This document shows, one piece after another, positions 9,858 to 55,749 of a stretch of 64,000 nt of DNA. A program made the position numbers and the translations under genes. Source of the DNA: a virus (Duplodnaviria; Caudoviricetes); IMG/VR virus record IMGVR_UViG_3300027898_000001. One strand, 5' to 3'. The notes under the pieces are model-generated. The model did no database searches and was not told the DNA's origin. It worked only from the letters and a program-made list of their open reading frames with translations. Within the stretch, counting starts at the first letter, position 1. The number at the start of each line of letters is the position of its first letter.

Positions 9858-10175
9858 TCATTCTCCATTTTGTATAGGCATAAAAGAAAAGTCTAAGAAG
9901 CATTCGCCAAATGATACAATCAATGTGTATACTATGCGACCATGTTCTCTTATAGATGGTTTAGGTGCGCCGTTACGTGTGATAGCGAACCGGCTTGTTA
10001 TATCATCAACAACAGTTTCTGGGCTACTAGGCTCTTTAACCCAAGGTATACAAATTAGGTCAAAATCACGTGCCATACTACCATGAACAGCCAATGCGTA
10101 TCCATGCGATCTAGCAATTTCTGCTAATTCTGGATATAGACCAACATAGATAGGTGCAAAGTTAGCAGGCTTCAT
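9858..10175 (-). CDS. hypothetical protein, weak minimal nucleotidyltransferase-like motif
   Basis: HGSMARDFDL (GS..DxD-like). Confidence 0.5.
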   Translation of the reverse strand: MKPANFAPIYVGLYPELAEIARSHGYALAVHGSMARDFDLICIPWVKEPSSPETVVDDITSRFAITRNGAPKPSIREHGRIVYTLIVSFGECFLDFSFMPIQNGE

Positions 10176-11215
10176 TACAGATCACCTTCCTGTAAATTTA
10201 ATACAGGTATTAATTGTTGTATTGATTTAGCGCTGTATCTGTGTGCCGATTCTGCTTTATCTAAATAGTCATTCAATCGACGTTTATTAAAACACACAGA
10301 TAACAATTCACATTCATCGTAGAAGTTTATATCAGTTTCGTATTGTTTTCGAGAACTGCAAGGTTTCGCAGCAATAGCGTATGTGCGATCTTTGAGAGCG
10401 AAGGATCTTACACCGGCAACAAACTTTTTACGTTCATGTTTGATAGTATCACCACTACGCTTACTCCATACGGGTGTCCATTTTTCAGAATACTCGTAGA
10501 AGTTAAATGGATTGTCTCTCGATAAATAGAGAAGACTAAAACCGTCAATAACCATACCGTACTTCTTCGCAAGAACATAACAATAAGCAGGTAATTGAAT
10601 AAGATGTGCAGAGTGTGGTAACTTCTTCGACATTATCTTACGTGCGGTGGTAGTCTTATAATCTGCTACCCAGAAATGACCATTCGGTAATAATATGATA
10701 CAATCAATGTGACCTACCAAACCTTTATATTTAATCTCTTTCTCAACATATCCCATTGGATGTTTGCAGCATGGGCATATATTGTTAGTGGTATTCTTCG
10801 CCGTAATACTACCTTTTCTTGTGATAGCTCCCTTTTCATTATACAAATCGCGTGTGTCATAAAACTTTTGACAATAAGGTGTGATGCAATTCCAATCACC
10901 CCAAACTTTACCAGTAGTGCCTATATAGTATTGGATATTCTCGTGAGCAGCCGTACCTACAGAAGTGAAGTAACCGCCGGCGGCGCTCATTTCCTGCTCG
11001 AAGTAACCTAAACTAGCACCTTTCATTAACTTCAAATAAACGTGAATGCTACACATAGGTAAAGAGCTGGGACGAAAAGCAGGAGCGCGCCCAGTTCGTG
11101 TAGTAATACTCTTTTCCATAGCATCTGCGTATAGCTTACCGAAAAAGGAACTACTTTGACCCATAGTTCGTTTTCCATAAGCGTACGGTCGTTTTTTAGG
11201 TAACTTACTAAACAT
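10175..11215 (-). CDS. PD-(D/E)xK exonuclease (RecB/Cas4-like)
   Basis: GTAAHE, GHIDC...VADYKT, QLPAY, Cys clusters. Confidence 0.8.
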   Translation of the reverse strand: MFSKLPKKRPYAYGKRTMGQSSSFFGKLYADAMEKSITTRTGRAPAFRPSSLPMCSIHVYLKLMKGASLGYFEQEMSAAGGYFTSVGTAAHENIQYYIGTTGKVWGDWNCITPYCQKFYDTRDLYNEKGAITRKGSITAKNTTNNICPCCKHPMGYVEKEIKYKGLVGHIDCIILLPNGHFWVADYKTTTARKIMSKKLPHSAHLIQLPAYCYVLAKKYGMVIDGFSLLYLSRDNPFNFYEYSEKWTPVWSKRSGDTIKHERKKFVAGVRSFALKDRTYAIAAKPCSSRKQYETDINFYDECELLSVCFNKRRLNDYLDKAESAHRYSAKSIQQLIPVLNLQEGDL

Positions 11216-11233: not shown

Positions 11234-11281
11234 TATTTACAGTATCTTGATTCAAATTATAGGAAATTGTAACTGTAAATA
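11234..11281. promoter_or_regulatory. divergent pair of TGTAAATA boxes (exonuclease and primase)
   Basis: Minus-strand box 11234-11241 and plus-strand box 11274-11281, 19-21 nt before each start. Confidence 0.7.
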
Positions 11282-11301
11282 TGAGTTACGAGGTACTTAA
11301 T

Positions 11302-12336
11302 ATGTCAGAAGATGCGCGTCAAATAATAAGTGAGGAATTGAATAATTCTCCTGGTCCTAAAAAGATGGCAGGTAGTTCACTTCTCATACAATGTCCTTTC
11401 CATGATGAAAACACACCATCATGTGGTGTCAACTTAAATCAAGATAGTGGTATTCCACTTGGCTGGTTTCATTGCTTTGGTTGTGGTGCTAAAGGTCCGT
11501 GGAATCGCTTAGCAAAACAAATGGGATTGACCCAGTTTAAGAAGTGGCAATTAGATTTCAAAGGTAATGGTGCGACTAGAGAAGAAAAACGTAGAACACC
11601 AGAAGCTAGTATGAAAAGTACAAATCAACTTGAGCGTATGTATAAGACGTTGAAAACAAAGGAGTTGATTGAATGGCCTACTAGAATGGACTGGAGAGGT
11701 TATGATGGCACACTACTTAGAAAGCTAGGCGCATTAATGTTTAGTGAAGAAGTGTGGAATAAACAAGAACGTGCTAGAGAAGCAGAGGTAATGCTGTTCT
11801 TCCCAATTTATGTAAACGAAAAGTTTGTAGGTGGTGTTAAAGCATTCATGGAGAAACAAAAAGACGGTCTAAGTTACTTGAACACGCCAGGCAGTTGGGT
11901 AAGAACAAGTGGTTTACTGGGATATGATTATATTCGCAAAGTAATAGCTAATGTAAGAGAAAAGAAAAAGAGACAATACACATCATTAGTATTAGTTGAA
12001 GGCCCGCGTGACGTAGCACGACTTCTGTTAAACAGAGTGCCAGCAATGGCTATTTTGGGTATCGAGAACTTTAGTGAAAAGAAGTTAATGAAAATACTGG
12101 CGGTAAATAGCAATATAAAAAGATTGTATGTAATGTCGGATAATGACAAAGCTGGTAAGCGTATGTATAAGATTATCAAGGAGATGGCTGCGAATTACAT
12201 CCCTGTAAAACGATTGAAATTGCCTGAAGAGTATGACAAGAAAGGAAAGCTAATTAAAATGGATCCAGACGATGCACCGCAAGAACTAATTGATACTGTA
12301 AGAGAACTTATAGAGTCGGAGATGGTGAAAGTCTAG
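11302..12336 (+). CDS. DNA primase (zinc-binding domain + TOPRIM)
   Basis: CPFHDENTPSC/HCFGC zinc finger, LVEGPRD, SDNDKAG; start moved to ATG 11302 after GAGG RBS. Confidence 0.88.
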   Translation: MSEDARQIISEELNNSPGPKKMAGSSLLIQCPFHDENTPSCGVNLNQDSGIPLGWFHCFGCGAKGPWNRLAKQMGLTQFKKWQLDFKGNGATREEKRRTPEASMKSTNQLERMYKTLKTKELIEWPTRMDWRGYDGTLLRKLGALMFSEEVWNKQERAREAEVMLFFPIYVNEKFVGGVKAFMEKQKDGLSYLNTPGSWVRTSGLLGYDYIRKVIANVREKKKRQYTSLVLVEGPRDVARLLLNRVPAMAILGIENFSEKKLMKILAVNSNIKRLYVMSDNDKAGKRMYKIIKEMAANYIPVKRLKLPEEYDKKGKLIKMDPDDAPQELIDTVRELIESEMVKV

Positions 12337-13084
12337 CATTAGCGGATAAGTAACCATTCTGAAACAAAAGGTCAGTATCAAACACTCCAAACCCAGAAGA
12401 TTTAACATCTAGGAATAATATATTTGTTTTATCATCTACCTCATTCAAATACGCATCTGTATTATCTACTGCGTAGGTTAACATAGATATAACTTTCGGT
12501 AAATAACTCAAGCCTTTATATCCACTAACTGTAGGCGCACTACGTACTCTAATACCGTACGTAATCGCATTGGATGGTGGCATCACATTTACAGGTGTAG
12601 GGTTCAAGACACCACCATCTACTAGTAACTTGTTTAAATATTTTACAGGCGTATACAAAATTGGTATAGATAAAGAAGCACGTACAGCTAACCAAATAGG
12701 TGCATTTGGAGAAGTTTCTTTACTGAATACAAATGGTTCGCCTGATATAACGTCAGACGATGTTATATAAATAGGTATAGGAGAATCTGCAAACGTCTTA
12801 GTACCAAATGTTCGTTTCAATTCACCTTCAATGTGTGTTCCAAAGCAAAAACTACTTTGAAATATTGCAGTTGGATTAAATGAAATGGCTTTAGAAGGGT
12901 CGAGAGATTTAAGGATAAGAAGTGCTTTATCAATAGGATAGAATGCTAACAAAGCTGCAATAATAGCACCTCCAGATGTACCAGACACTGCGGTTAAAGT
13001 GCTACTATCTTTTTCTATGATACTTTGATAAGCACCTAAGTGCATAGCATACAATAAACCACTACCAGAAAATGCCACTCTCAT
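12308..13084 (-). CDS. patatin-like phospholipase
   Basis: GSG..HLG oxyanion region, GTSGG nucleophile, DGG motif. Confidence 0.85.
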   Translation of the reverse strand: MRVAFSGSGLLYAMHLGAYQSIIEKDSSTLTAVSGTSGGAIIAALLAFYPIDKALLILKSLDPSKAISFNPTAIFQSSFCFGTHIEGELKRTFGTKTFADSPIPIYITSSDVISGEPFVFSKETSPNAPIWLAVRASLSIPILYTPVKYLNKLLVDGGVLNPTPVNVMPPSNAITYGIRVRSAPTVSGYKGLSYLPKVISMLTYAVDNTDAYLNEVDDKTNILFLDVKSSGFGVFDTDLLFQNGYLSANARLSPSPTL

Positions 13085-14735: not shown

Positions 14736-15306
14736 GTTTAGCGGACTTGTCCAAGTGACGTAGGAACGATATTATCCTTGCTTCACCTTCTAGGTTTGCG
14801 AATGGTATAAGATCAAATTGTTTAGCTACATGGTACTGCGCCATTAGCGTACAATCTAGTTCATGTACTTGGTGACGTATTTTAGGAGATTTTGGTTTCG
14901 ACAATACTTTTAGCATATCGTAAGTATCATTTAAAGAACAATCCTTATTAACGCGGTTAAAAGCATTCTTCCAAGTACCTGCAGTGTAAAGTACTATATT
15001 AGGATAAATATCATGTAACTTACCAATCATCATATTGATTGATTCTATGGAAAGTCCCTTTAATCCCCTACTTTGAAAACGCTCCGCGCACACTAAATCA
15101 AACGGTCCATATAAATGCTCAAGATGGTATATGTTTGATACAAACGCTCTACCCTCAGTCTTGATAGACATAGGGTTCTTAATAGGGCGCTCAAGCATTT
15201 GCGTACCAAGAACTTTTACTTTTAATTCACCGTCTTTAACTATCATATCAGATATTGAAACACCGTAATTAGCAGTACCTGGATCCATTGATAATATGCG
15301 CATCAC
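14731..15306 (-). CDS. RuvC-like Holliday junction resolvase
   Basis: ILSMDPGTANYG (first RNase H Asp), CAERFQ, C-terminal ELDC. Confidence 0.75.
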   Translation of the reverse strand: MMRILSMDPGTANYGVSISDMIVKDGELKVKVLGTQMLERPIKNPMSIKTEGRAFVSNIYHLEHLYGPFDLVCAERFQSRGLKGLSIESINMMIGKLHDIYPNIVLYTAGTWKNAFNRVNKDCSLNDTYDMLKVLSKPKSPKIRHQVHELDCTLMAQYHVAKQFDLIPFANLEGEARIISFLRHLDKSAKL

Positions 15307-15392
15307 ATCTACCTTATAAGAGTTTCGAGAAAATTAGCATATCGTGGTTCGATAATTTTAATTATATTTCCAATGCTAAAGGTAGAAGTAGA

Positions 15393-16499
15393 ATGGCTAT
15401 ATATAGAGGACCACAAGATACAAACAGACGCGCCAAGAACTACACACACAAACAAGCTCAAGCACGTTTGGAAGAGACTATACCTACATTTAACGAGCAA
15501 GTAATCAACTCACTTGGTGTGGATAGTGTTTTCATAGATTACTTCCATGTACATGATAGAGTAGGTGAAGTGTGCAGTTGTAGAAAAACAAAGGTAGAGG
15601 ACACATTCGATCACGTGGAAGATGGTGTGAATACAGTAGTACCTACACGTAATGATGTTAAGTCGTCCATAATACTGCAAGATGATGATATATTCGGAGA
15701 TAGTCGGGCAGAACGTATCTACGAAGATCAGGGGATAGATGTAAGTGGAGACTTAGATTATGATCCTAGTATTCCAGACGTGTTGACTGCACAACTAGAT
15801 AAAGATGGTAATGTTGTATATCAAGATAGTGTGACAGAAGGTAATGTAGATTGTCCTATATGTTATCGCACAGGCATACTACCCGGCTACACAAGATTGA
15901 ATACAGTGCGCCATTTGTTGACAAGTTTGAACTATGTTAAACTTGATGGTTACAATATAGATAGGGCATTGACACCACACGAGTTGTGGAACGTAAGTAA
16001 AACAGGTAATGCGTATTATGAGATATTAGTGCCAAAATACTTCACAGTAGCTAATTACAGTGTTCGTTATGGTAAGTACATTCTAAAGGCCGAAAGTATC
16101 TATCTGAACGGTGTGCCTCTGTCAGATAAGTTATTACGCAGATACGCAGGCACAAAGATAATAGTGTCTACAAAGGCCGAAAAATTTACACACATTGTTA
16201 TAGAGTTTGAATTAGTGCAAGAAAAACTACGTGGTAACCTGAGCGCTGAATCGAAAGCCTTAGATTACAATTTACGTGATATGACAGCGGATTTCACAGT
16301 AATCTTACCACCAAGTTTACATGAAGTAAGAGTGAATGATGTTATTGTAATACGGGATAGAAGGTTAGTATTAAAGGTGAAAGACATGGAACGTAAAGTG
16401 ACGGCAGCAAAAAAGCAATTAGAATGGTCAGTTCAAACGAGGGTGGTTCAACCACAGGAACCAATCAAAAACATTTACAAATCATTTAAAATAGGTTAA
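15393..16499 (+). CDS. conserved hypothetical protein (possibly structural)
   Basis: Long ORF; start moved to MAIYRG; CSC and CPIC motifs. Confidence 0.8.
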   Translation: MAIYRGPQDTNRRAKNYTHKQAQARLEETIPTFNEQVINSLGVDSVFIDYFHVHDRVGEVCSCRKTKVEDTFDHVEDGVNTVVPTRNDVKSSIILQDDDIFGDSRAERIYEDQGIDVSGDLDYDPSIPDVLTAQLDKDGNVVYQDSVTEGNVDCPICYRTGILPGYTRLNTVRHLLTSLNYVKLDGYNIDRALTPHELWNVSKTGNAYYEILVPKYFTVANYSVRYGKYILKAESIYLNGVPLSDKLLRRYAGTKIIVSTKAEKFTHIVIEFELVQEKLRGNLSAESKALDYNLRDMTADFTVILPPSLHEVRVNDVIVIRDRRLVLKVKDMERKVTAAKKQLEWSVQTRVVQPQEPIKNIYKSFKIG

Positions 16500-16503
16500 T
16501 ACT

Positions 16504-17085
16504 ATGAAAGACAGTACGGAAATAGCAGTACAAAAGAACATGATGGCTCTTGCAAAGAAGCGCGGCAGTAGTGCTCGTAGTCGTATGCTTAGTATGATTA
16601 TGCCCCACCTGTCCCAAGAAAATGGTGAGAAATTAGCCTCAGCATTAGATTCCAAGAATTCTTCTAAGTTTAGAGAAGTTTGGGATAAGATTCGTAAGGA
16701 AATTGAAACTAAATTTGGGCACAAAGCCGAAGCTAGTAATAGCAATGACTTCTTGGAAGAGTTTGAATTGGAAGTATTAGCTTCCTATAACGATTCTGAT
16801 GATGGTATCTTGTTGAATGGTAGTGGTCCATTCAAAGATCAACTACGTAGCATAATTGCAAATGGTTATGCTGAAATATCTCCAGGTATTGTATATCGTT
16901 TAGTATCAATTGATTTAGGTGCAGCACATAACCGCGCATTACAATCAAACATTGCAAAGATAGATGCAGAATTACACAGAGTGGATGGTACGTTAATTAA
17001 GTCATTCCGTTTCAGCGGCAAGTTAGTAAGTGCAGTATTCGACAACTTATTACTGGCAAAGGCGTTTATCAAAGATGATAAGTAA
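16504..17085 (+). CDS. hypothetical protein
   Basis: 193-aa ORF 4 nt after upstream stop. Confidence 0.8.
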   Translation: MKDSTEIAVQKNMMALAKKRGSSARSRMLSMIMPHLSQENGEKLASALDSKNSSKFREVWDKIRKEIETKFGHKAEASNSNDFLEEFELEVLASYNDSDDGILLNGSGPFKDQLRSIIANGYAEISPGIVYRLVSIDLGAAHNRALQSNIAKIDAELHRVDGTLIKSFRFSGKLVSAVFDNLLLAKAFIKDDK

Positions 17086-17284
17086 ATGCACGAATACAAC
17101 ATGCCCTATGCGCAGCGAGTGCAGACGTTCTACAGATATGTGGAGAGAAGATGATCCTAAGTCTTGGTACACGTATACTGTAGGAATAAATGGTGCGGAA
17201 TGTTCAAACAAGATAGATAACTATAGACGGTTATCTATCTCAAACCGCACTACTCCTATTCGTAATTCTGTGGTTGTATTTTAA
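17075..17284 (+). CDS. small Cys-rich hypothetical protein
   Basis: MISKCTNTTCPMRSECRR; start overlaps upstream gene end. Confidence 0.55.
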   Translation: MISKCTNTTCPMRSECRRSTDMWREDDPKSWYTYTVGINGAECSNKIDNYRRLSISNRTTPIRNSVVVF

Positions 17285-17501
17285 GTATGTTGTAATCTAT
17301 ATGCGCGAGTACGACGGCTTCTAAGTTTTGTCTATCTAAACTACCGTCGTACCTGCATATCTTAACTCCTGCATTAGGTAATGTATCTACACACACAAAT
17401 AGATAACATTTACCATTCACATTTTCCCATCCAATAGGTAATTCATCTATAGCAATATAATGAGAAATACCGTCAACTTCTACTACACTAAACCATTCCA
17501 T
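17256..17501 (-). CDS. hypothetical protein
   Basis: GGAG RBS and TGTAAATA box 39 nt upstream. Confidence 0.6.
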   Translation of the reverse strand: MEWFSVVEVDGISHYIAIDELPIGWENVNGKCYLFVCVDTLPNAGVKICRYDGSLDRQNLEAVVLAHIDYNILKIQPQNYE

Positions 17502-17539
17502 ACTTTTCTCCTAAAACACGTTTTTGGCAGATTATCAAT

Positions 17540-17547
17540 TATTTACA
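17540..17547 (-). promoter_or_regulatory. TGTAAATA box
   Basis: 39 nt upstream of 17501. Confidence 0.55.
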
Positions 17548-18343
17548 ATTTCTGTTTTTGCAAAAAGGACGAAAATCGTTCATTTTCATGCGAAAAAGTC
17601 ACTCAATTTCTTCAAAAACACGCTCTTATAACTAAAAGTTATTAAAACGCGGTTCCAAGAAAATGCTATTCCACATGCTAGGAATGAAGCCTACGGTATG
17701 CCTAATGTACGTTCCACCCAAACCAGTGTTTTTACAGGTGATACCTTTTCATGTTTTCGTCAAAAATTAATAGCTGTTTTTATTGCAAAAATAATATGAA
17801 TTCCATCCTAATGCATGGTCCTATCAAGGTAGTACTATTAAAACACTATATAACCACGCTTTTTCAAGATTAGACAGGTAGCAATTCGTATATAACCAAA
17901 TAGTCTAAAAATTCAGAAATAAAAAGTGTCAATACATAGTATTGCGCGAGAGCGAATAGCCTCGAAACGAATTCCCCAGCCAGAATGAGTGATAGAGATT
18001 GACCGAATGAGAACGAAGCGAAAGTGAGGGTATTTATACCCGAACAGAATTAGGCGCATTTGCGAAAAACTTGAATAGACTAGCCAGATTAATAAGCCTA
18101 ATCGGACGAGCGGAGTGAAGTCCTAATAGCGAAGCGTCCTGTCCGATGCTGCGGAGCAGCGAGTACACCTTAGCGCAGCGAAAGGTGATTAAAGATACTC
18201 TAAAAGATATTTCCCTGGCTCCAAGAATACATCATCCTAATTGGTAGATGATGTTGATTAGGTCTTTGGTAAATTGGGCAAAGCCTGCTTTTCGGAAAGC
18301 CATTGTTCCCGTTTCTAATTAGCCTATCTTTATAACGATTTAA

Positions 18344-18392
18344 TTAGGATTAATTCTTTGCCTTTTTGCCTTTAAAGTTAGGATTAATTCTT
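18344..18392. repeat. 15-bp direct repeat TTAGGATTAATTCTT x2
   Basis: 18344-18358 and 18378-18392. Confidence 0.8.
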
Positions 18393-18659
18393 GTATGAGT
18401 TAATCGCCTACGGCTCATAACTCCACTCTGCTGCGCAGAGGTCTTTATCGTTACTTCGTAACTCTTATTCTTCGCTCCGCTCATCATCCGCTACACTACG
18501 TTCCGCTCCTATTTTTAACTAATCTGTTTTAATTCCTTTTTCTATGCGCTAACGCGCTTGATAATATTTTACGCCGCGCCGGTTCGAGGCTGCTTTCGTG
18601 CGCGTTTCGCGCTTTTCTGAGTAATTTTATATACTTTTTCACATAAACGAGTAAATGCT

Positions 18660-18965
18660 ATGATACCTATTACAATAGTTCTAGCTAGTGACAGATATAA
18701 TAGTTACGATGAATATACTGCTAATCAAACTGAACCTTCTGACGAAGAATTGGAAGAGCAACGTATAGAAGATGAACGTCAGGTTGCAGAAGATGCCAAG
18801 AAAGCTGATGAGGCTAAGAAAAAGCCAGCTGCTAAAGATGATACCGCTTCCGAAGATAGTAGTGAAGAAGGAGATGATTCTGACGAGGAATCCGACGATA
18901 CTGACGAAGACGAGGAATCTACTGATGATACCGATGATGAGGACGATACCAAGGCTGACAAATAG
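18660..18965 (+). CDS. small acidic low-complexity protein
   Basis: D/E-rich C-terminal half. Confidence 0.7.
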   Translation: MIPITIVLASDRYNSYDEYTANQTEPSDEELEEQRIEDERQVAEDAKKADEAKKKPAAKDDTASEDSSEEGDDSDEESDDTDEDEESTDDTDDEDDTKADK

Positions 18966-18975
18966 TGCAGCAGAA

Positions 18976-19206
18976 TTGGGCCGTATTAAAACGCACAGAG
19001 ACAAGCATATTAAAGCTCTATCTTATTATGATAGACGCAAAAACCTTTGTCGTTTAGATAACATTACACAGTTGGCATACATACGAGAATTAATGTTATT
19101 GCGTCTACGTATGGAACGTCCAGAACCTGTTAAAGACTACGATAGATTGTTGATGCGCTCTGCATTACAACACTTCAGATTTGGCCTACACCACCTTTGC
19201 AACTGA
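18976..19206 (+). CDS. hypothetical protein
   Basis: 3' part of track ORF 18772..19206; TTG start assumed. Confidence 0.4.
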   Translation: MGRIKTHRDKHIKALSYYDRRKNLCRLDNITQLAYIRELMLLRLRMERPEPVKDYDRLLMRSALQHFRFGLHHLCN

Positions 19207-19216
19207 GACATTTAAA

Positions 19217-19585
19217 ATGACCGAAATTCTTATTTCCACCAGTGCGTCCTCACCAAACAATGATTTAGACAGAGCCATTTATGAAGCTCTCAATACTTCA
19301 TTTGATCTTAAGGTAAACAAGAACGATCTGTACCGTTCCGTATTTAACGTAGTTAACGCTCCTGATGCTATTTTCAGATACAAAACTCTTTCCAAAGATC
19401 CGAGATACACTACACTGTGTCGCGCATTTGAAGACAGTATTTCCGAGCGGTATGATGAATTAATTGAGAAATATGATTCCGCAACCGATAGTGAATTATT
19501 GGATAAACTGCAGGATGCCTTGTCTAAAGATTTTGGTATCCAAGCACATATTAATCTAGGCCGTTTAATCGTATCTTTAGCATAG
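19217..19585 (+). CDS. hypothetical protein
   Basis: MTEILIS start. Confidence 0.65.
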   Translation: MTEILISTSASSPNNDLDRAIYEALNTSFDLKVNKNDLYRSVFNVVNAPDAIFRYKTLSKDPRYTTLCRAFEDSISERYDELIEKYDSATDSELLDKLQDALSKDFGIQAHINLGRLIVSLA

Positions 19586-19586
19586 T

Positions 19587-19707
19587 TTGAAACCGTCAGC
19601 AAAACATGATATAATGAGTTGTGAAAGAAATATCTATCCTGTCTGCACTTTGTAGGTATAGCTCATAGTTAATATTGAAATGTTTGTAAACTTTAGGAGT
19701 ATCAAAT
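19587..19707 (+). promoter_or_regulatory. repeat cassette copy 1: sigma70-type promoter + hairpin + RBS (no ORF follows)
   Basis: TTGAAA-N17-TATAAT(19610), TG extended -10, hairpin 19616-19664, TGTTTGTAAAC, AGGAG. Confidence 0.8.
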
Positions 19708-19829
19708 CTAGTGATGTAGATATTCAAGCTTACCAACTTTATTAAACCTTTTTCTGTTAGAGTGTTCTAATAAAACGAGTATTTATGATATCGGATAGAT
19801 TTAATTTAAAAGTGTAAACATTACAATAT

Positions 19830-19926
19830 GAAGTTGAGACTGAATGGTTACCGAACGGGGATGAAGCCTAGCGGGTCGACAGTTAAACATCCTGTTATGT
19901 ACTGGAGGTTACGCAGTCTCAGCTTC
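19830..19926 (+). ncRNA. candidate 97-nt small RNA
   Basis: 13-bp terminal stem GAAGTTGAGACTG/CAGTCTCAGCTTC with one G.U, inner helix AACGGGGATG/CATCCTGTT; TGTAAACA box ends 10 nt upstream. Confidence 0.55.
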
Positions 19927-20060
19927 CTCTGTTTCATCTAATCTAGTTGCGGCATTAAACTACCACGGCCTGCTCTTTTATTTAAGGTAATCATTATGTA
20001 TAACATGAATCCTGCACAACTATTACTCCTTCGATGTAGTACAATCATTGGAGAATTGTT

Positions 20061-20240
20061 ATGTCAAAGAAGTATTGTTTCAAATTCCTGCGAGTTGGTC
20101 CAGGCGGTATGAAATGTAACTGCTGCGCACCTGCTCCAGGGAAACGCAAAGAAATGTTCCGCAGTGCTAAGCGCCAGTTAGATCGTGCGTTGATGCGTGT
20201 GGAAAAGCAAGAACTCGAGGCTATTCGTAAAGAAAGCTAA
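20061..20240 (+). CDS. 59-aa Cys-containing small protein
   Basis: Below track cutoff; GGAG RBS; VGPGGMKCNCCAP. Confidence 0.65.
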   Translation: MSKKYCFKFLRVGPGGMKCNCCAPAPGKRKEMFRSAKRQLDRALMRVEKQELEAIRKES

Positions 20241-20243
20241 AAG

Positions 20244-20251
20244 TGTAAATA
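20244..20251 (+). promoter_or_regulatory. TGTAAATA box (tRNA)
   Basis: AAGTGTAAATA, 33 nt before the tRNA. Confidence 0.7.
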
Positions 20252-20283
20252 AGTGTTGACAGATAACTACTGTCCCTTACAAC

Positions 20284-20360
20284 GGGCCTATAGCTCAGTT
20301 GGTCAGAGCGTTCGGCTCATAACCGAAATGTCCGCAGTTCAAGTCTGCGTGGGCCCACCA
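20284..20360 (+). tRNA. tRNA with CAT anticodon, probably tRNA-Ile2 (lysidine type); Met not excluded
   Basis: Cloverleaf: GGGCCTA/TGGGCCC acceptor, TTCGG-CTCATAA-CCGAA anticodon arm, GTTCAA T loop, encoded CCA; C4:G69 and C5:G68 pairs. Confidence 0.92.
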
Positions 20361-20525
20361 ACATAACCCAACTAATGTTATTCGTAAGGAATCTTTTAAT
20401 CATGTTAATAAAAACAAGAACTGTGTTAAAAACGAATGGAAAAAACGTACAAGTCATTACAGTAAAACGTAAGACGATAGTTGCACCTACACAACACCTA
20501 GCTTTCGCTAAAGTCGCGTGATATA

Positions 20526-20558
20526 AAAATGCCTCCCTCGTGGAGGCATTTTGCTTTT
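20526..20558 (+). terminator. intrinsic terminator
   Basis: AAAATGCCTCC-CTCGT-GGAGGCATTTT followed by T-rich run. Confidence 0.75.
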
Positions 20559-22217: not shown

Positions 22218-24221
22218 ATGAGTGAAAAGAAAAAGAAAAGTGCCAGCCAAGATGGTTTTCAGGTATTAGAAAATCTTGATGGTATAAAAGCCAACCCGTC
22301 TATGTACTTGGGTAATCTAGGCGAGGACATGGCCTACCGCTGCGTTAAGGAGCCTGTCGACAACGCTTACGATGAAGCCGTTGCAGGTAGAAACAAGCTA
22401 ATCGAAGTGTGTTTAAACTACGATACTGACTATATAACTGTAGCAGATGGTGCCGGAGGTGTGCCGACCGAATTAAAGACACTAAAATCCGGCGAGAAGA
22501 TTAGTATTCTAACGGCAGCGTTTACTCGTGTTCACGCTGGCGGTAAATTTAATGCTACATCGTACAAAACATCTGCAGGAACCCATGGCGTAGGTGTTGC
22601 TGCTGTAAATGCTGTGTCAGAAGAAATGCGAGTATGGTCAAACTATAGAAATAAGCTAGTACATCAGGCGTATCTAGGTGGAGACATATCAACAAAAGGT
22701 CCGCATCCAGTACAAGTTAAATCTGTGGATAAAGACGTTGCCGTAATGCTTCGAGATAAGCCTACAGATTACGGTACTATTGTCACAATAAAACTCAATC
22801 AGTCCATAGTATCAGAAAATGCCCGTCGTGGTAAAGCACTGCCTAAGAATTTCGTTAAAGCCGAACCAAATGCAAAACAAATTGCATCTTGGCTTAAGAA
22901 CATGGCTTACTTGAATCCAGGTTTAGAGATTCGATTCTCGTTTATCCGTAAAGGTAAGCGTAAAGACCTCACGTTTATCAATAAGAAAGATTTAGCGTGG
23001 ATACCAAAACAAATGTGCGAAGTCCATGAGCTATCTGCTATGGGCAAACCGCTTGTGTTTAAGAACGATAACATTAGTTGTGCTATTGTGTGGGCAGATC
23101 ATCCAGACACGGATAACTTCTTAACATTCGTAAACACATCACCAACTGTTGATGGTGGTTGGCACGTTACAGGCTTTATGACTGCACTTGGCCAGGCGAT
23201 CAAACCATTCTTACCTGTATCTAAGGGCAAGAAAAAGAAAGATGCAGGCTTTTCAAACAGTGACTTGTTAATTGGCCTTACTGGTATGTTTGACTGGCGT
23301 ATGCACGGTGCGGCGTACACGAGCCAAGTTAAAGATAAGCTAGCCAGTAAAGTTGACCGTGAAGTACATGAAATCATGCTGCCTGTATTTGAGAGCTATT
23401 TCAAAGCAAACAGTAAAGTCGCTAAAGCGATTATCAAACGCGCACAGACCATGACTAAAGGTCGTGAAGAATTAGCGGCAGTTGTTAAGAGTATGGCGGA
23501 TGTTAAGAAAAAGAAAAAAGGTAATACACTACCCTCTTGTTTAGCTGCTAGTCCAAAAGCTAAATCAAGTGAGCGTGAGCTTTACGTTGTTGAAGGTGAT
23601 TCTGCGGCTAAAACTGCTATTGATGCTCGTAATGGTATGTATCAAGAAGTATTAGGTGCAGGAGGTAAACCTCTTAACGCACTAAAAGCCACTTTAGCTA
23701 AGGTGTTAGCACATGAAGAAATTCAAAACATGCTTATCTGTTTGGGTGCTGATATTAAGACTCTTGATCCTAAAGCAGAAAACCCCACACTGTCTGTTGA
23801 TAAGTTACGTGCTGCACATCTGATATTCTTAGTTGATCCTGATCCTGATGGTTATCACATTGCAGTGTTGTTCCTAGCAGCTATTTACCGTTTGATGCCA
23901 GACTTACTGCGTCAAGGTCGCGTGTGGTGTGTTCGAGCTCCACTGTATGCAGTTGTTTATAAAGGTAAGTTGTATGGTGGTGAGACATTCCAAGAAGCTC
24001 GCGCAACTGCGCCTAAAGAAGTGAAAGACAAAGACATTATACGCATTAAAGGTTGGGGGGAGGTTGATGAGACTGTTCTCGAACCTATTGCATTCGATCC
24101 TAAGATTCGTAATCTAATTCGTATCAACCCTTTTGAAAGTGCTGAGCAAGCGAAATTCTTTAGAGGTGTGGTTGGTGAAGATGCTGTGTACCGTCGTCAG
24201 TTGTTAGGGTTGGAGAACTAA
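22218..24221 (+). CDS. type IIA DNA topoisomerase subunit B (GyrB/ParE-like)
   Basis: GHKL motifs EPVDNAYDE, DGAGG, HAGGKF, GTHGVG; TOPRIM EGDSA and DPDPDG; IKGWGE. Confidence 0.93.
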   Translation: MSEKKKKSASQDGFQVLENLDGIKANPSMYLGNLGEDMAYRCVKEPVDNAYDEAVAGRNKLIEVCLNYDTDYITVADGAGGVPTELKTLKSGEKISILTAAFTRVHAGGKFNATSYKTSAGTHGVGVAAVNAVSEEMRVWSNYRNKLVHQAYLGGDISTKGPHPVQVKSVDKDVAVMLRDKPTDYGTIVTIKLNQSIVSENARRGKALPKNFVKAEPNAKQIASWLKNMAYLNPGLEIRFSFIRKGKRKDLTFINKKDLAWIPKQMCEVHELSAMGKPLVFKNDNISCAIVWADHPDTDNFLTFVNTSPTVDGGWHVTGFMTALGQAIKPFLPVSKGKKKKDAGFSNSDLLIGLTGMFDWRMHGAAYTSQVKDKLASKVDREVHEIMLPVFESYFKANSKVAKAIIKRAQTMTKGREELAAVVKSMADVKKKKKGNTLPSCLAASPKAKSSERELYVVEGDSAAKTAIDARNGMYQEVLGAGGKPLNALKATLAKVLAHEEIQNMLICLGADIKTLDPKAENPTLSVDKLRAAHLIFLVDPDPDGYHIAVLFLAAIYRLMPDLLRQGRVWCVRAPLYAVVYKGKLYGGETFQEARATAPKEVKDKDIIRIKGWGEVDETVLEPIAFDPKIRNLIRINPFESAEQAKFFRGVVGEDAVYRRQLLGLEN

Positions 24222-24222
24222 G

Positions 24223-25845
24223 ATGAAGAAGTCTAAGAAAAACACTCGTGATATAAAGGGCGTTGATGTTAGTGGTACAAACGTGAGCAAAAAGACGATC
24301 GCACCAACTGCTGAATTGTTGGATGTAGATGCTCCAGTTAAGTTTCTGCCAATGTTGAATCAACCTGAATCTAATGTTATCAATATGGGTATGGCGGATT
24401 TTACTGAAGATGCACTACGTAGGTACGGTAGTTATGTTGTTGAAGAACGTGCTATTCCTGATTTTCGAGATGGTCTAAAACCGTCACATAGAGCTGTGTT
24501 GTGGTCATTGTGTGGTTTAGGTTTACGGCCAAGCAGCTCGTATAAGAAATCAGCACGTACAGTAGGTGATGCTATTGGTAAATATCATCCACACGGAGAT
24601 GCTGCTACTTATGGTGCTATGGTTACTATCGCTAACACGATGCCTCCAGTTGTTGACGGTCAAGGTAACTGGGGCACACCTATAAATATGGCAGCAGCTT
24701 ATAGATATACTGAAGCAAAGATAAGTAAGTTTGCACATTTGTTTATGGCAGACACTAAGTATCTTGAAGTAATACCAAAAGTACCAAACTTCTCTGGTGA
24801 TGATGTTATTCCTCTGTACATGCCTGCCCTGCTGCCTTACATACTGTTCATAGGTAACGTACCAGCACCAGCTTATGGTGTACGTGCTGGTAATCCTAGC
24901 TTCTCATTCAAGAGTGTTGCTAAAGTCGTTATTGAAATGTTGAAAGGTGTTGAGTATAATCATAAAAAGTTAGCCAAGCAATTAAAGATTCAACATGCGT
25001 TTGGTTGTGATGATGCTACCGATGATGATGCGTTCTTAGAAATGATTAGCACAGGTAAGGGTAATATTACCTACATGCCAAAAGCTGATTACGATTTTGA
25101 TAAGCGTGTTATTCGTATTCAATCGTTTACACCTGGATCATTATCTTCAGTTAAGAACATAGATAACACCCTTGCCAAGATAAGTAACATTGAAGGTGTT
25201 AGGGAAGCATACTCCGCACAAGGTAAAAAATCTGTTGGTAGCGGACCGTACGGTGCACTATTCAATATTGAATTGCAGAAATCTTTATCGGATGACCGCT
25301 TTGATTCTATTTGTGAGAAAGTTGACCACATTATTACATCATCGGTTAACTATCGTCTTGGTATCACAATTCGTAAGTCGGACGAAACTAACAAATTCAA
25401 GTATGTGAATTACTTGTCATTACTACAGGCGTGGATTAAATATCGTATTGCGCTTGAAGTGAAAATGATTAAGCACTTGAAAATGAAGGCTGAGCGCGAC
25501 CTGCATATCAATGAGGTGTACTTGTTTGCTATTGAAAACATGGACAAAATTCTCAAGATATTACCTAAGGTTCTTGTTGCCAAAGAGCCTGATGTTACAT
25601 TAGCAAGTGCGTTGAAGATGCCTGTAGAAGATGCGACAATTATATTGGATCGTAAAGTTCGACAGTTGGCTAAGTTGGAAGCAGGTGCTATCAAAGAAAA
25701 GGTCCGTGCGTTGAAAGCCGAGATTATGCAGCTATCTAAAGACCTGAAAGACCCTGGTGGTCGTGCCGCACGTGATACAGAAGAACGTGTTGCCACTTAT
25801 TTGAAATCACCCGATTCTCCACAGTCTGGTCTAAAATTCGAGTAA
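24223..25845 (+). CDS. type IIA DNA topoisomerase subunit A (GyrA/ParC-like, no C-terminal pinwheel)
   Basis: RAIPDFRDGLKP, KKSARTVGD, YHPHGD, DGQGNWG, catalytic AAYRYTE. Confidence 0.93.
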   Translation: MKKSKKNTRDIKGVDVSGTNVSKKTIAPTAELLDVDAPVKFLPMLNQPESNVINMGMADFTEDALRRYGSYVVEERAIPDFRDGLKPSHRAVLWSLCGLGLRPSSSYKKSARTVGDAIGKYHPHGDAATYGAMVTIANTMPPVVDGQGNWGTPINMAAAYRYTEAKISKFAHLFMADTKYLEVIPKVPNFSGDDVIPLYMPALLPYILFIGNVPAPAYGVRAGNPSFSFKSVAKVVIEMLKGVEYNHKKLAKQLKIQHAFGCDDATDDDAFLEMISTGKGNITYMPKADYDFDKRVIRIQSFTPGSLSSVKNIDNTLAKISNIEGVREAYSAQGKKSVGSGPYGALFNIELQKSLSDDRFDSICEKVDHIITSSVNYRLGITIRKSDETNKFKYVNYLSLLQAWIKYRIALEVKMIKHLKMKAERDLHINEVYLFAIENMDKILKILPKVLVAKEPDVTLASALKMPVEDATIILDRKVRQLAKLEAGAIKEKVRALKAEIMQLSKDLKDPGGRAARDTEERVATYLKSPDSPQSGLKFE

Positions 25846-52830: not shown

Positions 52831-55749
52831 GTGGCTAAACTAGCAAAATCTGCCAAACTTAAAAATGCTGATGCGTCTGAATTAGCTGCGTTTGATCCAT
52901 ACGCGCATTTAGACAAATCAATCGACTCGATGGAAAAACAGTTTGAACTGAGTGCTATGTCGTTTGATAAGAACGAACCTAGATTCAGTACAGGCTTACT
53001 ATCACTAAACATTATGCTGGCCAATGGCCTTCTTGGTGGTGGTTGGTATACCTGCTTCGGTGGTGAACAGTCGTGTAAGTGCCTTGTTGGTGATAGCTTA
53101 GTTGTAACAGATAGTGGTTTGTTGCGACTAGATGAAATATATTTGGAATCATCTAAATCTACGTTAGAAGGTTTCAACGATATTACACCTATTACTGTCG
53201 AATCTCATAAAGGTAAACGACAAGCTACTAAAGTTTACATAGGTAAAGGTTCTACATATCGTATCAAGACAAAACTAGGTGATGTTGTAGAAGGTTTGCC
53301 GGATCACAAGTTATGGAGTCTTGTTGACGGTAAATTTACGTGGACACGTTTAGATAAGCTAAAACAAGGTGCTTATGTTCCAAAGAAAATAGGTACTAAT
53401 ATATATGCCAAAGAGTCTGCAAAGTTTAATTTTAAACCAGATCTTGACTATATGTTTAAAATGACTGATAGTTTACGCGGTCTTGGTGATGTACATTATC
53501 CTAGTGAGATTTCAGAAAATCTCGCTGAAATTTTTGGCTGGTTAGTGTCAGAAGGTTCTCCGGATAACAGATTTCATAACAAGAATCCTTATGCACTTAA
53601 TCGCTTTAATAAACTCGTAAAACGTGTGTTTGGACAACCTTGCAAAACGCTTACAGATAATTATGCAATAGCACATGGCTTAGTATTAAGATTTTTTAGT
53701 GAGTATCTTGGTAATGTAACATCTGCTGAGCGATTTACTCCTGTAAGTGTACGCTGTTCTCCTAAGAATATACAAACAGCTTACCTGCGTTCGTTATTTG
53801 AAGGTGATGGTGCCGCTATTAATTCAAAGAACGGTACAGTTACTCTTACAACGCTTAGTAGAAAACTTGCGGAAGAAACTAAGTACATGCTAGAAAACAT
53901 GGGCATGCTTTGTTATATTAGAGAACGCACGACGTGGGCTACTAATGGTAGTGAATCTCAGATTGAAAAAGAAGCCTATGTTTTATCTGTACATCCAGAT
54001 TTCGCACATGTGTTTGAATCTGAAGTTGGTTTTTTATCCAATAGAAAGAATGAAATATTACGAACACTTATTGAACGCAGCTTAAATAGTAAATCTGTAA
54101 ACTCTCGTGTTGGTCCTACGAACACGTTACCGGGCGCGGAGCTTGCGGTACATTTAATAAATATTGTGAATCGTATAAGTCCAAATCTTGGAATATCCTG
54201 CAGCAGTAGTGGTCAGAGTTCTGTATTCTCCAATATTTCAACAAAAGACTTGCGTAGTGGTAAATCAGGATTAACAAGATGTACACTATCTCGTATTTTA
54301 AATTGTATTGTCGAATATAAGTTAGAAGATTCTCTACCAGACGAAGGTAAAGAATTAATTAAAACTTTGAAACACTACACAAACTATTATTGGACAACTG
54401 TAGACTACTCTAAACGTACTAGACTTAAAAAACTTGTGTACGATCTAAATGTAGAAGATACGCACTCCTATCATGTTAATGGTATGATTAGCCACAACTC
54501 CACCCTGGCAATGACCATTCTAAGTAGTATCATGTTGCAGAAAGATTTTCGTGGCAAGGCTGCGTATTTCGACTACGAAGGTAGTTCGCAGGCAGAGTAC
54601 ATTGAAAACATCATGCGTAGTATGGGCATCAAAGACAACATTGAAAGTGTGTTTGGTGTACAAGATGAAGAAACAGGTGATTGGATTGTTAAACCACGTG
54701 TACGTTATTACACTCCAGATACTGGTGAGAAGTTCTTCCACTACTTAGCCAAGTTAGAAAAACTATTACCGGATAAAGTCAAGAAAGGCGGACAGTGGTA
54801 TTTCGTGTATGAAAATAACCGCGACAATCAGAAAGCCCTTAAAGGCCGTTATGATAAAGCGTTATTTAGTAAGTACAACCAATTCTACATTCCTGCTCCT
54901 GACGGCACCATTCAAGCCATCATACTGACAGACTCTTATCCAGCAATGTTACCCGATAGTGCAGATAAGAAAGAAGAAGGTGATAAAGGCTTGGCTTTGC
55001 AAGCGCGTATGTTTGCTGATGGTTTGAAACGTGTTAAGAGTGCTATGCGTAGAAAGCGTATTGTAGTTCTAGGCGTTAACCAACTACGTAAAGTACCGAT
55101 GGCAATGTATGGACCTTCTGAGACTGAGCCATGCGGCGATGCTTTGAAGTACTTCAGCGATGTTCGTTTCCGCAATAGTTCTGTTTCTATTCCACACGGC
55201 AAAGGCATGTTGGAAGAAGAAGATAGTGTTATTGGTGACGGTGTTGATACGTACCGCTATATCAAAATTCGTACACACAAAAACAAACTCGGTGGTGTGC
55301 CAAACCAAGAAGTTACTTTACGTATTGTAGTAGAGAACGCTAATGGTACGGCTACTGGTTTCTGTCGTGTTTGGGATGCGTACACCTATTTGAAGCTAAC
55401 GGGTCAGATTGGTGGTCAGCGCAACAAGATTAAATTCTTGGAAGGCTTTAATGTCGTCAAGAAAGATCCAAAGACACAGATCAGCAAAGAAGTTTACGTG
55501 GACTTTAAAAATCCATTTGCTGGAACAGTTGTTAATTGGTTAGATTTTAAAACTCTGATTGAAGGACACAAGGATGATATTAAAGCACTATGTAAAAAAC
55601 TGAAAATGTCTAAGCCTGTCATGTTGCGCAGTTTCTTGGAAAATCAATGCTCTGATGGTTTGGGCTTCACTTACATGAAAGATGCAAAACGTGCCAAATC
55701 TGCGGAGAAAAGATCGGCAGATAAGTCTGATGCAGATGATGAAGAATAG
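52831..55749 (+). CDS. recA: RecA/UvsX-like recombinase with intein (499 aa spliced)
   Basis: FSTGLLSLNIMLANG, split P-loop GGEQSCK|ST, YFDYEGS, TDSYPAM, VNQLR, GDALKYFSDVR, KNKLG. Confidence 0.85.
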   Translation: MAKLAKSAKLKNADASELAAFDPYAHLDKSIDSMEKQFELSAMSFDKNEPRFSTGLLSLNIMLANGLLGGGWYTCFGGEQSCKCLVGDSLVVTDSGLLRLDEIYLESSKSTLEGFNDITPITVESHKGKRQATKVYIGKGSTYRIKTKLGDVVEGLPDHKLWSLVDGKFTWTRLDKLKQGAYVPKKIGTNIYAKESAKFNFKPDLDYMFKMTDSLRGLGDVHYPSEISENLAEIFGWLVSEGSPDNRFHNKNPYALNRFNKLVKRVFGQPCKTLTDNYAIAHGLVLRFFSEYLGNVTSAERFTPVSVRCSPKNIQTAYLRSLFEGDGAAINSKNGTVTLTTLSRKLAEETKYMLENMGMLCYIRERTTWATNGSESQIEKEAYVLSVHPDFAHVFESEVGFLSNRKNEILRTLIERSLNSKSVNSRVGPTNTLPGAELAVHLINIVNRISPNLGISCSSSGQSSVFSNISTKDLRSGKSGLTRCTLSRILNCIVEYKLEDSLPDEGKELIKTLKHYTNYYWTTVDYSKRTRLKKLVYDLNVEDTHSYHVNGMISHNSTLAMTILSSIMLQKDFRGKAAYFDYEGSSQAEYIENIMRSMGIKDNIESVFGVQDEETGDWIVKPRVRYYTPDTGEKFFHYLAKLEKLLPDKVKKGGQWYFVYENNRDNQKALKGRYDKALFSKYNQFYIPAPDGTIQAIILTDSYPAMLPDSADKKEEGDKGLALQARMFADGLKRVKSAMRRKRIVVLGVNQLRKVPMAMYGPSETEPCGDALKYFSDVRFRNSSVSIPHGKGMLEEEDSVIGDGVDTYRYIKIRTHKNKLGGVPNQEVTLRIVVENANGTATGFCRVWDAYTYLKLTGQIGGQRNKIKFLEGFNVVKKDPKTQISKEVYVDFKNPFAGTVVNWLDFKTLIEGHKDDIKALCKKLKMSKPVMLRSFLENQCSDGLGFTYMKDAKRAKSAEKRSADKSDADDEE
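53080..54498 (+). mobile_element. intein (473 aa) with LAGLIDADG homing endonuclease, in the P-loop
   Basis: Cys1 CLVGDSLV, C-terminal ISHN, +1 Ser; IFGWLVSEG and YLRSLFEGDG motifs. Confidence 0.92.

Follow-up and report, generated by a model that had tools for sequence, protein, structure and literature searches.

Mini-hairpins of the GCGNAGC type in DNA have been reported until now chiefly in small single-strand phages, in one plasmid and in the promoters of phage N4, and a transcript is needed at the origins of ColE1, of T4 (oriF and oriG) and at the lytic origins of herpesviruses, which would be functional analogues of the locus described here. This locus is a gene-free gap at 17502-18659 of a 64-kb stretch of viral DNA (IMG/VR record IMGVR_UViG_3300027898_000001; the whole stretch is called the window below), in which a phage promoter is followed by a field of such mini-hairpins that lie on the + strand in the left arm and on the - strand in the right arm. 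The window encodes topoisomerase II, a DnaG-type primase, a Cas4-like nuclease and an intein-bearing UvsX/RecA protein and was therefore assigned to an uncultured jumbo phage, whose closest cultured relatives by the large subunit of topoisomerase II are Pseudomonas phage PaBG (73% amino acid identity) and Lu11 (67%). Our analysis points to a conserved, single-copy, non-coding and cis-acting DNA element that would be transcribed from its own promoter and is most likely an origin of replication, a reading whose probability we put at about 0.4.

The closest known systems work alike and share no sequence with the element. The rule for 'extraordinarily stable' DNA mini-hairpins is C-GNA-G with a free N, closure by a C.G pair and a perfect stem, and their RNA counterparts are reported to be far less stable (PMC13037366, PMC3201870). 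Precedents for such hairpins as signals are the G4 oric, the RSF1010 ssiA and ssiB sites and the N4 promoters (PMC13037366). The oriV of RSF1010 resembles our element in that ssiA and ssiB, served by the RepB' primase, carry C-GAA-G mini-hairpins on opposite strands of one origin, where they prime the leading strand (PMC13037366). RSF1010 however has one 40-nt signal per strand beside iterons, a dedicated RepB' primase, the RepC initiator and no transcript, whereas the element has three to five units per arm, a core of about 230 bp, a read-through promoter and a DnaG-type primase, and its function is a candidate one. The element also shares its GCGNAGC or GCGNNAGC mini-hairpins with the oric of G4, St-1 and alpha3 and with primosome assembly sites of the phiX174 type; in the G4-type systems they are located at primase start sites on single-strand DNA and bind single-strand-binding protein poorly (PMC13037366). 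Those systems belong to phages of single-strand DNA in which just one strand bears the signal, whereas here the genome is large and double-stranded, so that a mini-hairpin signal must first be exposed. A C-GNA-G mini-hairpin on the template strand, as in single-strand initiation and primosome assembly signals, is present in both arms, and the signals on opposite strands (window + 18129-18187, - 18406-18506) are oriented for divergent synthesis.

The promoter motif upstream of a long non-coding stretch recalls ColE1, with its RNA II and primosome assembly sites, and T4 oriF and oriG: there the promoter lies several hundred bases upstream, a structured transcript hybridises and opens the origin, and single-strand signals stand on the displaced strand. 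The element has no sequence similarity to ColE1 and no antisense RNA I was seen; the T4 origins are much shorter. A further likeness to ColE1 is that PaBG uses a Pol I-type polymerase together with a 5'-3' exonuclease for its replication (PMC7412058). Early promoters of N4 are template-strand hairpins in which a stem of 5-7 bp carries a GGA or GAA triloop, on the GCGGAGC pattern (PMC13037366). Some of our units fit that form (GCTGC-GGA-GCAGC, GTTAC-GAA-GTAAC), but in many the stem has only 2 bp or the loop centre is C or T; N can be any base, there are many units per arm and no N4-like polymerase was found, a weak negative from four complete relatives. The large phage RNAs of Rfam (GOLLD, ROOL) are comparable in their size of 0.5-0.8 kb, their phage location, the tRNA genes a few kb away and their many hairpins, but the motif content of the element differs, its folding is without strand bias and it matches no Rfam model.

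The gap, 1158 bp long, is the largest interval of the window without an open reading frame (ORF) of at least 70 amino acids, which bears out the 1.15-kb gene-free stretch claimed by an earlier reading of the letters alone (the original prediction), and it contains no + strand ORF of at least 40 amino acids beyond 17873. The second-largest ORF-free gap of the window lies at 19603-20550. Hairpins were read directly and then confirmed by script (Table 1); they were all recovered in place, as were the predicted inverted repeat of 8 bp, direct repeat of 15 bp and purine/pyrimidine bias. Purines make up 56-66% per 50 nt across 17900-18200 and 26-42% across 18300-18650. Five of the 22 GCGNAGC heptamers of the window fall within 350 bp (18129-18480), and the peak count in any 400 bp is 5 compared with a maximum of 3 in 200 Markov shuffles. 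Three of the four C-GNA-G hairpins with a stem of at least 5 bp in the window are located in the gap, outside which this class accounts for 1 of 67 perfect triloop hairpins. The units lie about 22 nt apart, and in the right arm their order and spacing mirror the left arm about the central motif at 18276-18301. The strand-asymmetric GNA-triloop field of the original prediction is real, stands above shuffled controls and, as described below, is conserved across a wide phage clade.

The field is headed by a variant of the phage's own promoter class (AAAAAGTGTCAAT / AAAAAGTGTCAATA). The canonical promoter, ACTGTAAATA, has 7 copies in the window where 0.4 would be expected. All seven fall outside the 55 ORFs of at least 150 amino acids, and six are followed at a distance of 10-133 nt by one of these ORFs in the same orientation. 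The G variant of the promoter, AAAAGTGT[AC]AA, is found four times on the + strand, at 17922, 19808, 20239 and 45290, the first heading the hairpin field and the last preceding the ORF of a 143-amino acid protein. The other two G variants, AAAAGTGTAAAC and AAAAGTGTAAAT (19808-19926 and 20239-20360), stand before an ORF-free small RNA candidate and 34 nt before a tRNA-Met gene, respectively. In Lu11 the matching box is annotated as 'putative middle/late promoter', and a promoter box heads the element in 15 of 15 relatives with an orientation that is constant relative to the strand asymmetry. The hairpin overlapping the box (CAATAC-ATA-GTATTG in the window) is kept with compensatory change, as CAATAT-GTA-ATATTG in L075 and L078 and as CAATAC-GCA-GTATTG in L076 and L212. 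The promoter together with the terminator-like hairpin and T-run at the other end suggests that the field is very probably transcribed rightwards as a unit, giving a predicted ORF-free transcription unit of about 680 nt; the hairpin and T-run of 18598-18618 are themselves not conserved in relatives. A conventional phage promoter that would read through the whole field one way was absent from the original prediction, and any mechanism would have to include it. In several members a second promoter box is found just before the next gene.

A nucleotide search of the gap DNA against 50,697 phage records gave no match. Relatives were reached through topoisomerase II loci, a protein database and exact-protein contig look-ups, and 15 syntenic gaps downstream of the phrog_21298 protein share the same design, a promoter box (GTGTCAA or CTGTAAA) followed by 500-750 ORF-free bases. 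A gene-free gap is present at this place in PaBG (116,152-117,630), Lu11, HRDY3 and IMG/VR contigs; in the closer uncultured relatives L075, L076, L078, L080, L081 (marine) and L082 the neighbour protein is 43-59% identical and the gene order is the same. Scans of metagenomes and IMG/VR with the DNA pattern AAAAGTGTCAATAN{3,9}TATTG returned about 150 loci, nearly all of them by chance, with L212 as the sole member retrieved, and peptide-pattern scans for the neighbour protein in viral and metagenome contigs found none. Sequence profiles of the PaBG type and of the Lu11 type detect neither each other nor the window, so that the family link consists of synteny, promoter box, motif statistics and architecture and not of alignable sequence. 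By eye, most relatives have a central motif related to that of the window (AAGTCTGCTT, AGGTCTGTCC or CTCTGTCTT, with a hairpin after it). On the - strand, the 15-mer ATGAGCGNAGCGAAK is found again in L082 and L050, and L212 and L078 both contain ACGAGCGTAGCGAGT. In the complete genome of PaBG the element is single-copy, and the strongest cluster of heptamers falls there together with the longest ORF-free gap. A second C-GNA-G cluster of PaBG, at 63.7-64.3 kb, lies inside a 560-amino acid ORF and was taken as chance.

Family statistics were calculated on 16 elements (about 9.5 kb). GCGNAGC occurs 69 times where 10.9 +/- 3.2 are expected, related control heptamers being found 2-22 times, and its N is A in 26 cases, T in 17, G in 14 and C in 12. 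Copies on the + strand occupy the first half of the elements and copies on the - strand the second half, with median relative positions of 0.31 and 0.82 (Mann-Whitney P = 1.7e-10), and counts are uneven between the arms. Of the perfect triloop hairpins with a stem of at least 5 bp, 26 of 47 (55%) are C-GNA-G on one strand, a share to be compared with that of the rest of the window given above and with 11 of 322 in the rest of PaBG. Their stems are perfect Watson-Crick helices, all closed by C.G and free of G.T wobble, and their sequences vary freely between relatives (CTAACGC/GCGTTAG, TTCCGC/GCGGAA, GTTCC/GGAAC). Agreement of N from arm to arm amounts to 13 of 28 matches against 13.3 expected by permutation. 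Since N is unrelated between the arms the right-arm motifs are not simply pairing partners of the left-arm motifs, and they behave as independent local units instead of pairing into one long helix. Lu11-type elements apart, most members are imperfect palindromes: under mild scoring with locally shuffled controls the inverted-repeat halves gave z = 3.4 in the window, 5.9 in L078, 3.6 in L081 and 16 in L212, and a strict local alignment of the left arm with the reverse complement of the right arm was not significant. The elements have an A+T-rich core, and a G+C-rich 3' end (mean 61-63% in the last two twelfths) is nearly universal.

How could such a field work? We propose that the element is an origin opened by transcription. 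Host RNA polymerase with a phage sigma factor would initiate at AAAAAGTGTCAATA and proceed rightwards, and the purine-rich first ~250 nt of the transcript would favour a lasting RNA:DNA hybrid (an R-loop) and opening of the duplex, as for ColE1 RNA II and T4 oriF/oriG. The displaced + strand of the left arm could then extrude C-GNA-G mini-hairpins, which would resist single-strand-binding protein and mark sites for the DnaG-type primase, by analogy with G4 oric and RSF1010 ssiA. Opening would extend across the A+T-rich core and uncover, on the - strand of the right arm, mini-hairpins that mirror those of the left; outward synthesis would be primed from each arm, and the G+C-rich block would close the element. 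In this scheme the anatomy with its statistics and conservation and the class of the promoter motif are observed, and transcription, R-loop formation, hairpin extrusion, priming and origin function are inferred.

GNA units on opposite strands, with their polarity and free N, fit strand-specific single-strand DNA signals such as RSF1010 ssiA and ssiB, and for this reason an origin, put forward as a bidirectional one in the original prediction, remains the best single reading. The polarity flips at the centre, where in RNA the GNA loops would become chemically unrelated UNC loops. The + and - strands fold equally well, singly and in alignments, as expected from symmetry at the DNA level; wobble counts show no strand preference either. 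Three further aspects agree with the picture of an origin: the element lies among genes for replication and recombination, it is single-copy in PaBG, and the replicase is of the Pol I type with a 5'-3' exonuclease.

Several observations weigh against it. The gene-orientation switch claimed for the gap is local only and consists of one - strand ORF of 81 amino acids; the main gene divergence is at ~11.2 kb, away from the element, where back-to-back ACTGTAAATA promoters and the minimum of cumulative GC skew are also found. Cumulative skew, proposed originally as a check over the full genome, is unfavourable within the window, where the switch lies elsewhere. In PaBG the skew is very weak; the element falls within a broad extremum at 113-119 kb, but this is a maximum, which under the bacterial rule has a terminus-like sign. 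Members of the Lu11 type have few - strand motifs and no significant palindromic symmetry. The right border of no member carries a leftward promoter box, an absence that also speaks against convergent paralogous RNA genes. The field recurs in the 15 syntenic gaps, but in a complete genome from the sister clade of Erwinia/Dickeya type, where the neighbouring genes are the same, both the cluster and a GTGTCAAT box are missing. Several of the conserved hairpins contain bulges, internal loops or loops other than GNA and look more RNA-like. Finally nearest-neighbour DNA folding gives the 2-bp mini-hairpin units 0 kcal/mol and does not predict them, a calculation that is uninformative since the folding model is without a special GNA term.

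The RNA-like features lead to the most serious alternative, which we hold only somewhat less probable than an origin, namely that the gap encodes, as a gene in its own right, a new structured non-coding RNA ~0.5-0.75 kb long that would run from the AAAAAGTGTCAAT promoter to ~18620. Its purine-rich 5' half would fold onto the pyrimidine-rich 3' half about the conserved central hairpin, with GNA-capped hairpins throughout, and the RNA would work in trans, perhaps as a protein scaffold or a sponge. Such a gene would account for an element without ORFs, for the conserved promoter subclass that also serves tRNA-Met and the small RNA candidate, and for the promoter that several relatives give to their next gene; the terminator-like hairpin with its T-run would fit as well, but it is not conserved. 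Compensatory stem changes between relatives (those listed above, and GGTGGC/GCCACC versus GGGAACC/GGTTCCC), double changes in 34 of 87 and 10 of 43 predicted pairs, the conservation of bulged hairpins and non-GNA loops and that of an unpaired central motif all argue for RNA. So do minimum free energy z-scores of -3 to -4 and the half-against-half duplex energy, which in the window (z = -3.5) and several relatives is better than that of locally shuffled controls, although across members it is mixed (z from +0.8 to -3.5). Restriction to a lineage, inferred from the sister-clade genome, is common for accessory RNAs. However, neither folding energy nor alignment folding shows a strand preference, the triloop stems are without G.U pairs, and what is enriched is precisely the heptamer of the DNA mini-hairpin, a motif reported to be far less stable as RNA (PMC13037366). 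The GCUNCGC of the right arm has no rationale in RNA given the unrelated N between the arms, and the motif counts on the two arms are unbalanced. Profiles of one subtype miss the other subtypes, and among 4227 Rfam models searched up to E = 1 nothing relevant was found in window 16500-19500, L048, L050 and L001. No single test cleanly separates a DNA element from an RNA gene.

We consider it unlikely that the hairpin potential is merely a by-product of dyad symmetry in an array of oriented, near-dyad sites for a phage protein that binds duplex DNA, forming an operator field or a partition-type site over the divergent promoters of the gap. The presence of those divergent promoters, the ~22-bp spacing of the window units with its mirroring between arms, the conservation of the 15-mer ATGAGCGNAGCGAAK across distant members and the 3-4 upstream copies of ACTACTGATTGCAG in PaBG-type gaps could be read in this way. 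Relatives do not keep the 22-bp spacing, though, and only C-GNA-G is constant while stems vary freely, which is the signature of a structure and not of a sequence-specific site; the central triplet is moreover asymmetric and strand-polar, and no DNA-binding protein is linked, the beta-sandwich model of the neighbour being uninformative. Divergent N4-type hairpin promoters, at which a single-subunit RNA polymerase of the phage would transcribe each arm from its template strand, had been suggested in the original prediction and now appear very improbable. The 5-6 bp stems with GGA or GAA loops that some units place on the would-be template strand for outward transcription would suit them, and N4 mini-vRNAP does bind a GCGGAGC-type hairpin (PMC13037366). 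Yet PaBG is reported to have sigma factors and no RNA polymerase of its own (PMC7412058), the flanking genes already have ordinary phage promoters, and there are 4-5 units per arm instead of one per transcription unit, many of them with merely a 2-bp stem or with a central C or T where N4 promoters are described with GGA or GAA loops (PMC13037366). PF00940 had 0 matches in four complete relatives, a negative that is weak since the control genomes were silent too.

If the element is an origin, GCGNAGC mini-hairpin arrays serve as a biological signal in a double-strand DNA virus; these would be the first such arrays in vivo in a large double-strand DNA virus and the first defined origin of this jumbo-phage clade. 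We tentatively suggest that PaBG/Lu11-like jumbo phages of soil, fresh water and sea use a new kind of origin, a promoter-opened palindrome of 0.5-0.75 kb with opposed C-GNA-G priming arrays. The element is in any case a precise single-copy origin candidate for the clade that is testable in the cultured phages PaBG, Lu11 and HRDY3, and the GTGTCAAT box together with an opposed GCGNAGC/GCTNCGC field offers a simple metagenome signature for it. If it were an RNA instead it would represent a new class of large phage RNA that is not in Rfam. In the literature we found no paper describing an origin, a non-coding RNA or the gap in PaBG-like phages, and the PaBG paper has no mention of origin of replication, intergenic, non-coding/noncoding or hairpin.

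Table 1. Positions of the sequence features of the gap and of selected neighbouring genes in the window
Feature	Position	Strand	Remark
Cas4-like nuclease gene	10175-11215		
DnaG-type primase gene	11281-12336		
Conserved upstream neighbour of the element	15288-16499		phrog_21298 = PaBG gp157
Small ORF, 81 amino acids	17256-17501	-	
Upstream control region	17502-17920		- strand promoter-like boxes aimed at ORF 17256-17501
Promoter-like box TGTAAATA	~17540-17547	-	
Hairpin ATAACT-AAA-AGTTAT	17629-17643		
Promoter-like box CTGTAAAAA	~17729-17737	-	
Promoter variant AAAAAGTGTCAAT / AAAAAGTGTCAATA	17921-17934	+	Phage's own promoter class
Hairpin CAATAC-ATA-GTATTG	17930-17944	+	Overlaps promoter box
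Purine-rich left arm	17944-18190		+ strand C-GNA-G units
Left-arm unit GACGAGCGGAGTGAAG	18105-18120	+	
GC-GAA-GC	18129-18135	+	
GCTGC-GGA-GCAGC	18148-18160	+	
GC-GCA-GC	18173-18179	+	Within CACCTT/AAGGTG (CACCTTA-GC-GCA-GC-GAAAGGTG), 18166-18187
A+T-rich core	18190-18400		25-33% G+C in lowest twelfths
8-bp inverted repeat	18229-18236/18247-18254		
Central motif with hairpin GGGCAAAGCCTGCTTTTCGGAAAGCC	18276-18301		Approximate palindrome centre
15-bp direct repeat TTAGGATTAATTCTT	18344-18358 and 18378-18392		
Right arm, pyrimidine-rich on +	18400-18510		- strand C-GNA-G units
GCC-GTA-GGC	18406-18414	-	
CTCTGC-GCA-GCAGAG	18426-18440	-	
GTTAC-GAA-GTAAC	18450-18462	-	
GATGAGCGGAGCGAAG	18470-18485	-	Contains GC-GGA-GC, 18474-18480
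GC-GGA-AC	~18498-18506	-	Weaker unit
G+C-rich distal block	18571-18620	+	Predicted pairing with 17944-17966
Terminator-like hairpin GTGCGCG-TTT-CGCGC + TTTTCT	18598-18618	+	
Topoisomerase II	22218-25845		

The element is located within a replication/recombination module (Table 1), and a Holliday-junction resolvase is annotated at the syntenic position in PaBG and Lu11. The constant upstream neighbour of the element, the phrog_21298 protein, contains conserved CxC and CxxC motifs; its middle is disordered and its C-terminal part is a beta-sandwich. The protein has 0 matches in Pfam and 0 sequence matches in the PDB, and the beta-sandwich of its AlphaFold model, which is of moderate quality (pLDDT 67), gave no convincing Foldseek match; the protein therefore provides no pointer to an initiator or an RNA-binding partner. 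The only tRNA that ARAGORN detected is the tRNA-Met at 20284. At the left end of the gap a matching - strand box is found in L075, L076, L078 and L080 as well, in L076 together with the ATAACT/AGTTAT hairpin. The upstream half of the window gap contains AAAACAC(G) repeats and a TTTTTGCAAAAA palindrome, and in PaBG-type gaps the upstream half contains 2-4 copies of the iteron-like 14-mer ACTACTGATTGCAG (L001 13530-13680; L048 1810-2310).

Some minor observations were made on the relatives and on the window. In Lu11 the small ORFs gp130 and gp131 (L002 2915-3463) lie inside the element downstream of the annotated promoter, and relatives are without a counterpart; they are probably spurious, whether the element is an origin or an RNA. 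Lu11-type elements (L051 9640-9690; L002 2950-3010, - strand; L070 and L071) end in a conserved C-rich tail, CCCCCTCCCCAGTTCCGC..GCCCCCTCCCCCGC, whose opposite strand has four G-tracts with G-quadruplex potential. In Dickeya phage JA13 (L054 8150-8950) the 1.2-kb 'gap' past the homologous protein is unlike the element and resembles an unannotated protein-coding gene. Within the replication/recombination module of the window a patatin-like phospholipase gene (12308-13084) adjoins the primase gene and is kept in L075, L078 and L080. The UvsX/RecA-type recombinase gene at 52831-55749 is split by an intein with a LAGLIDADG homing-endonuclease domain, as seen from its matches to PHROG 97 and to the Pfam families RecA, Intein_splicing and LAGLIDADG_3.

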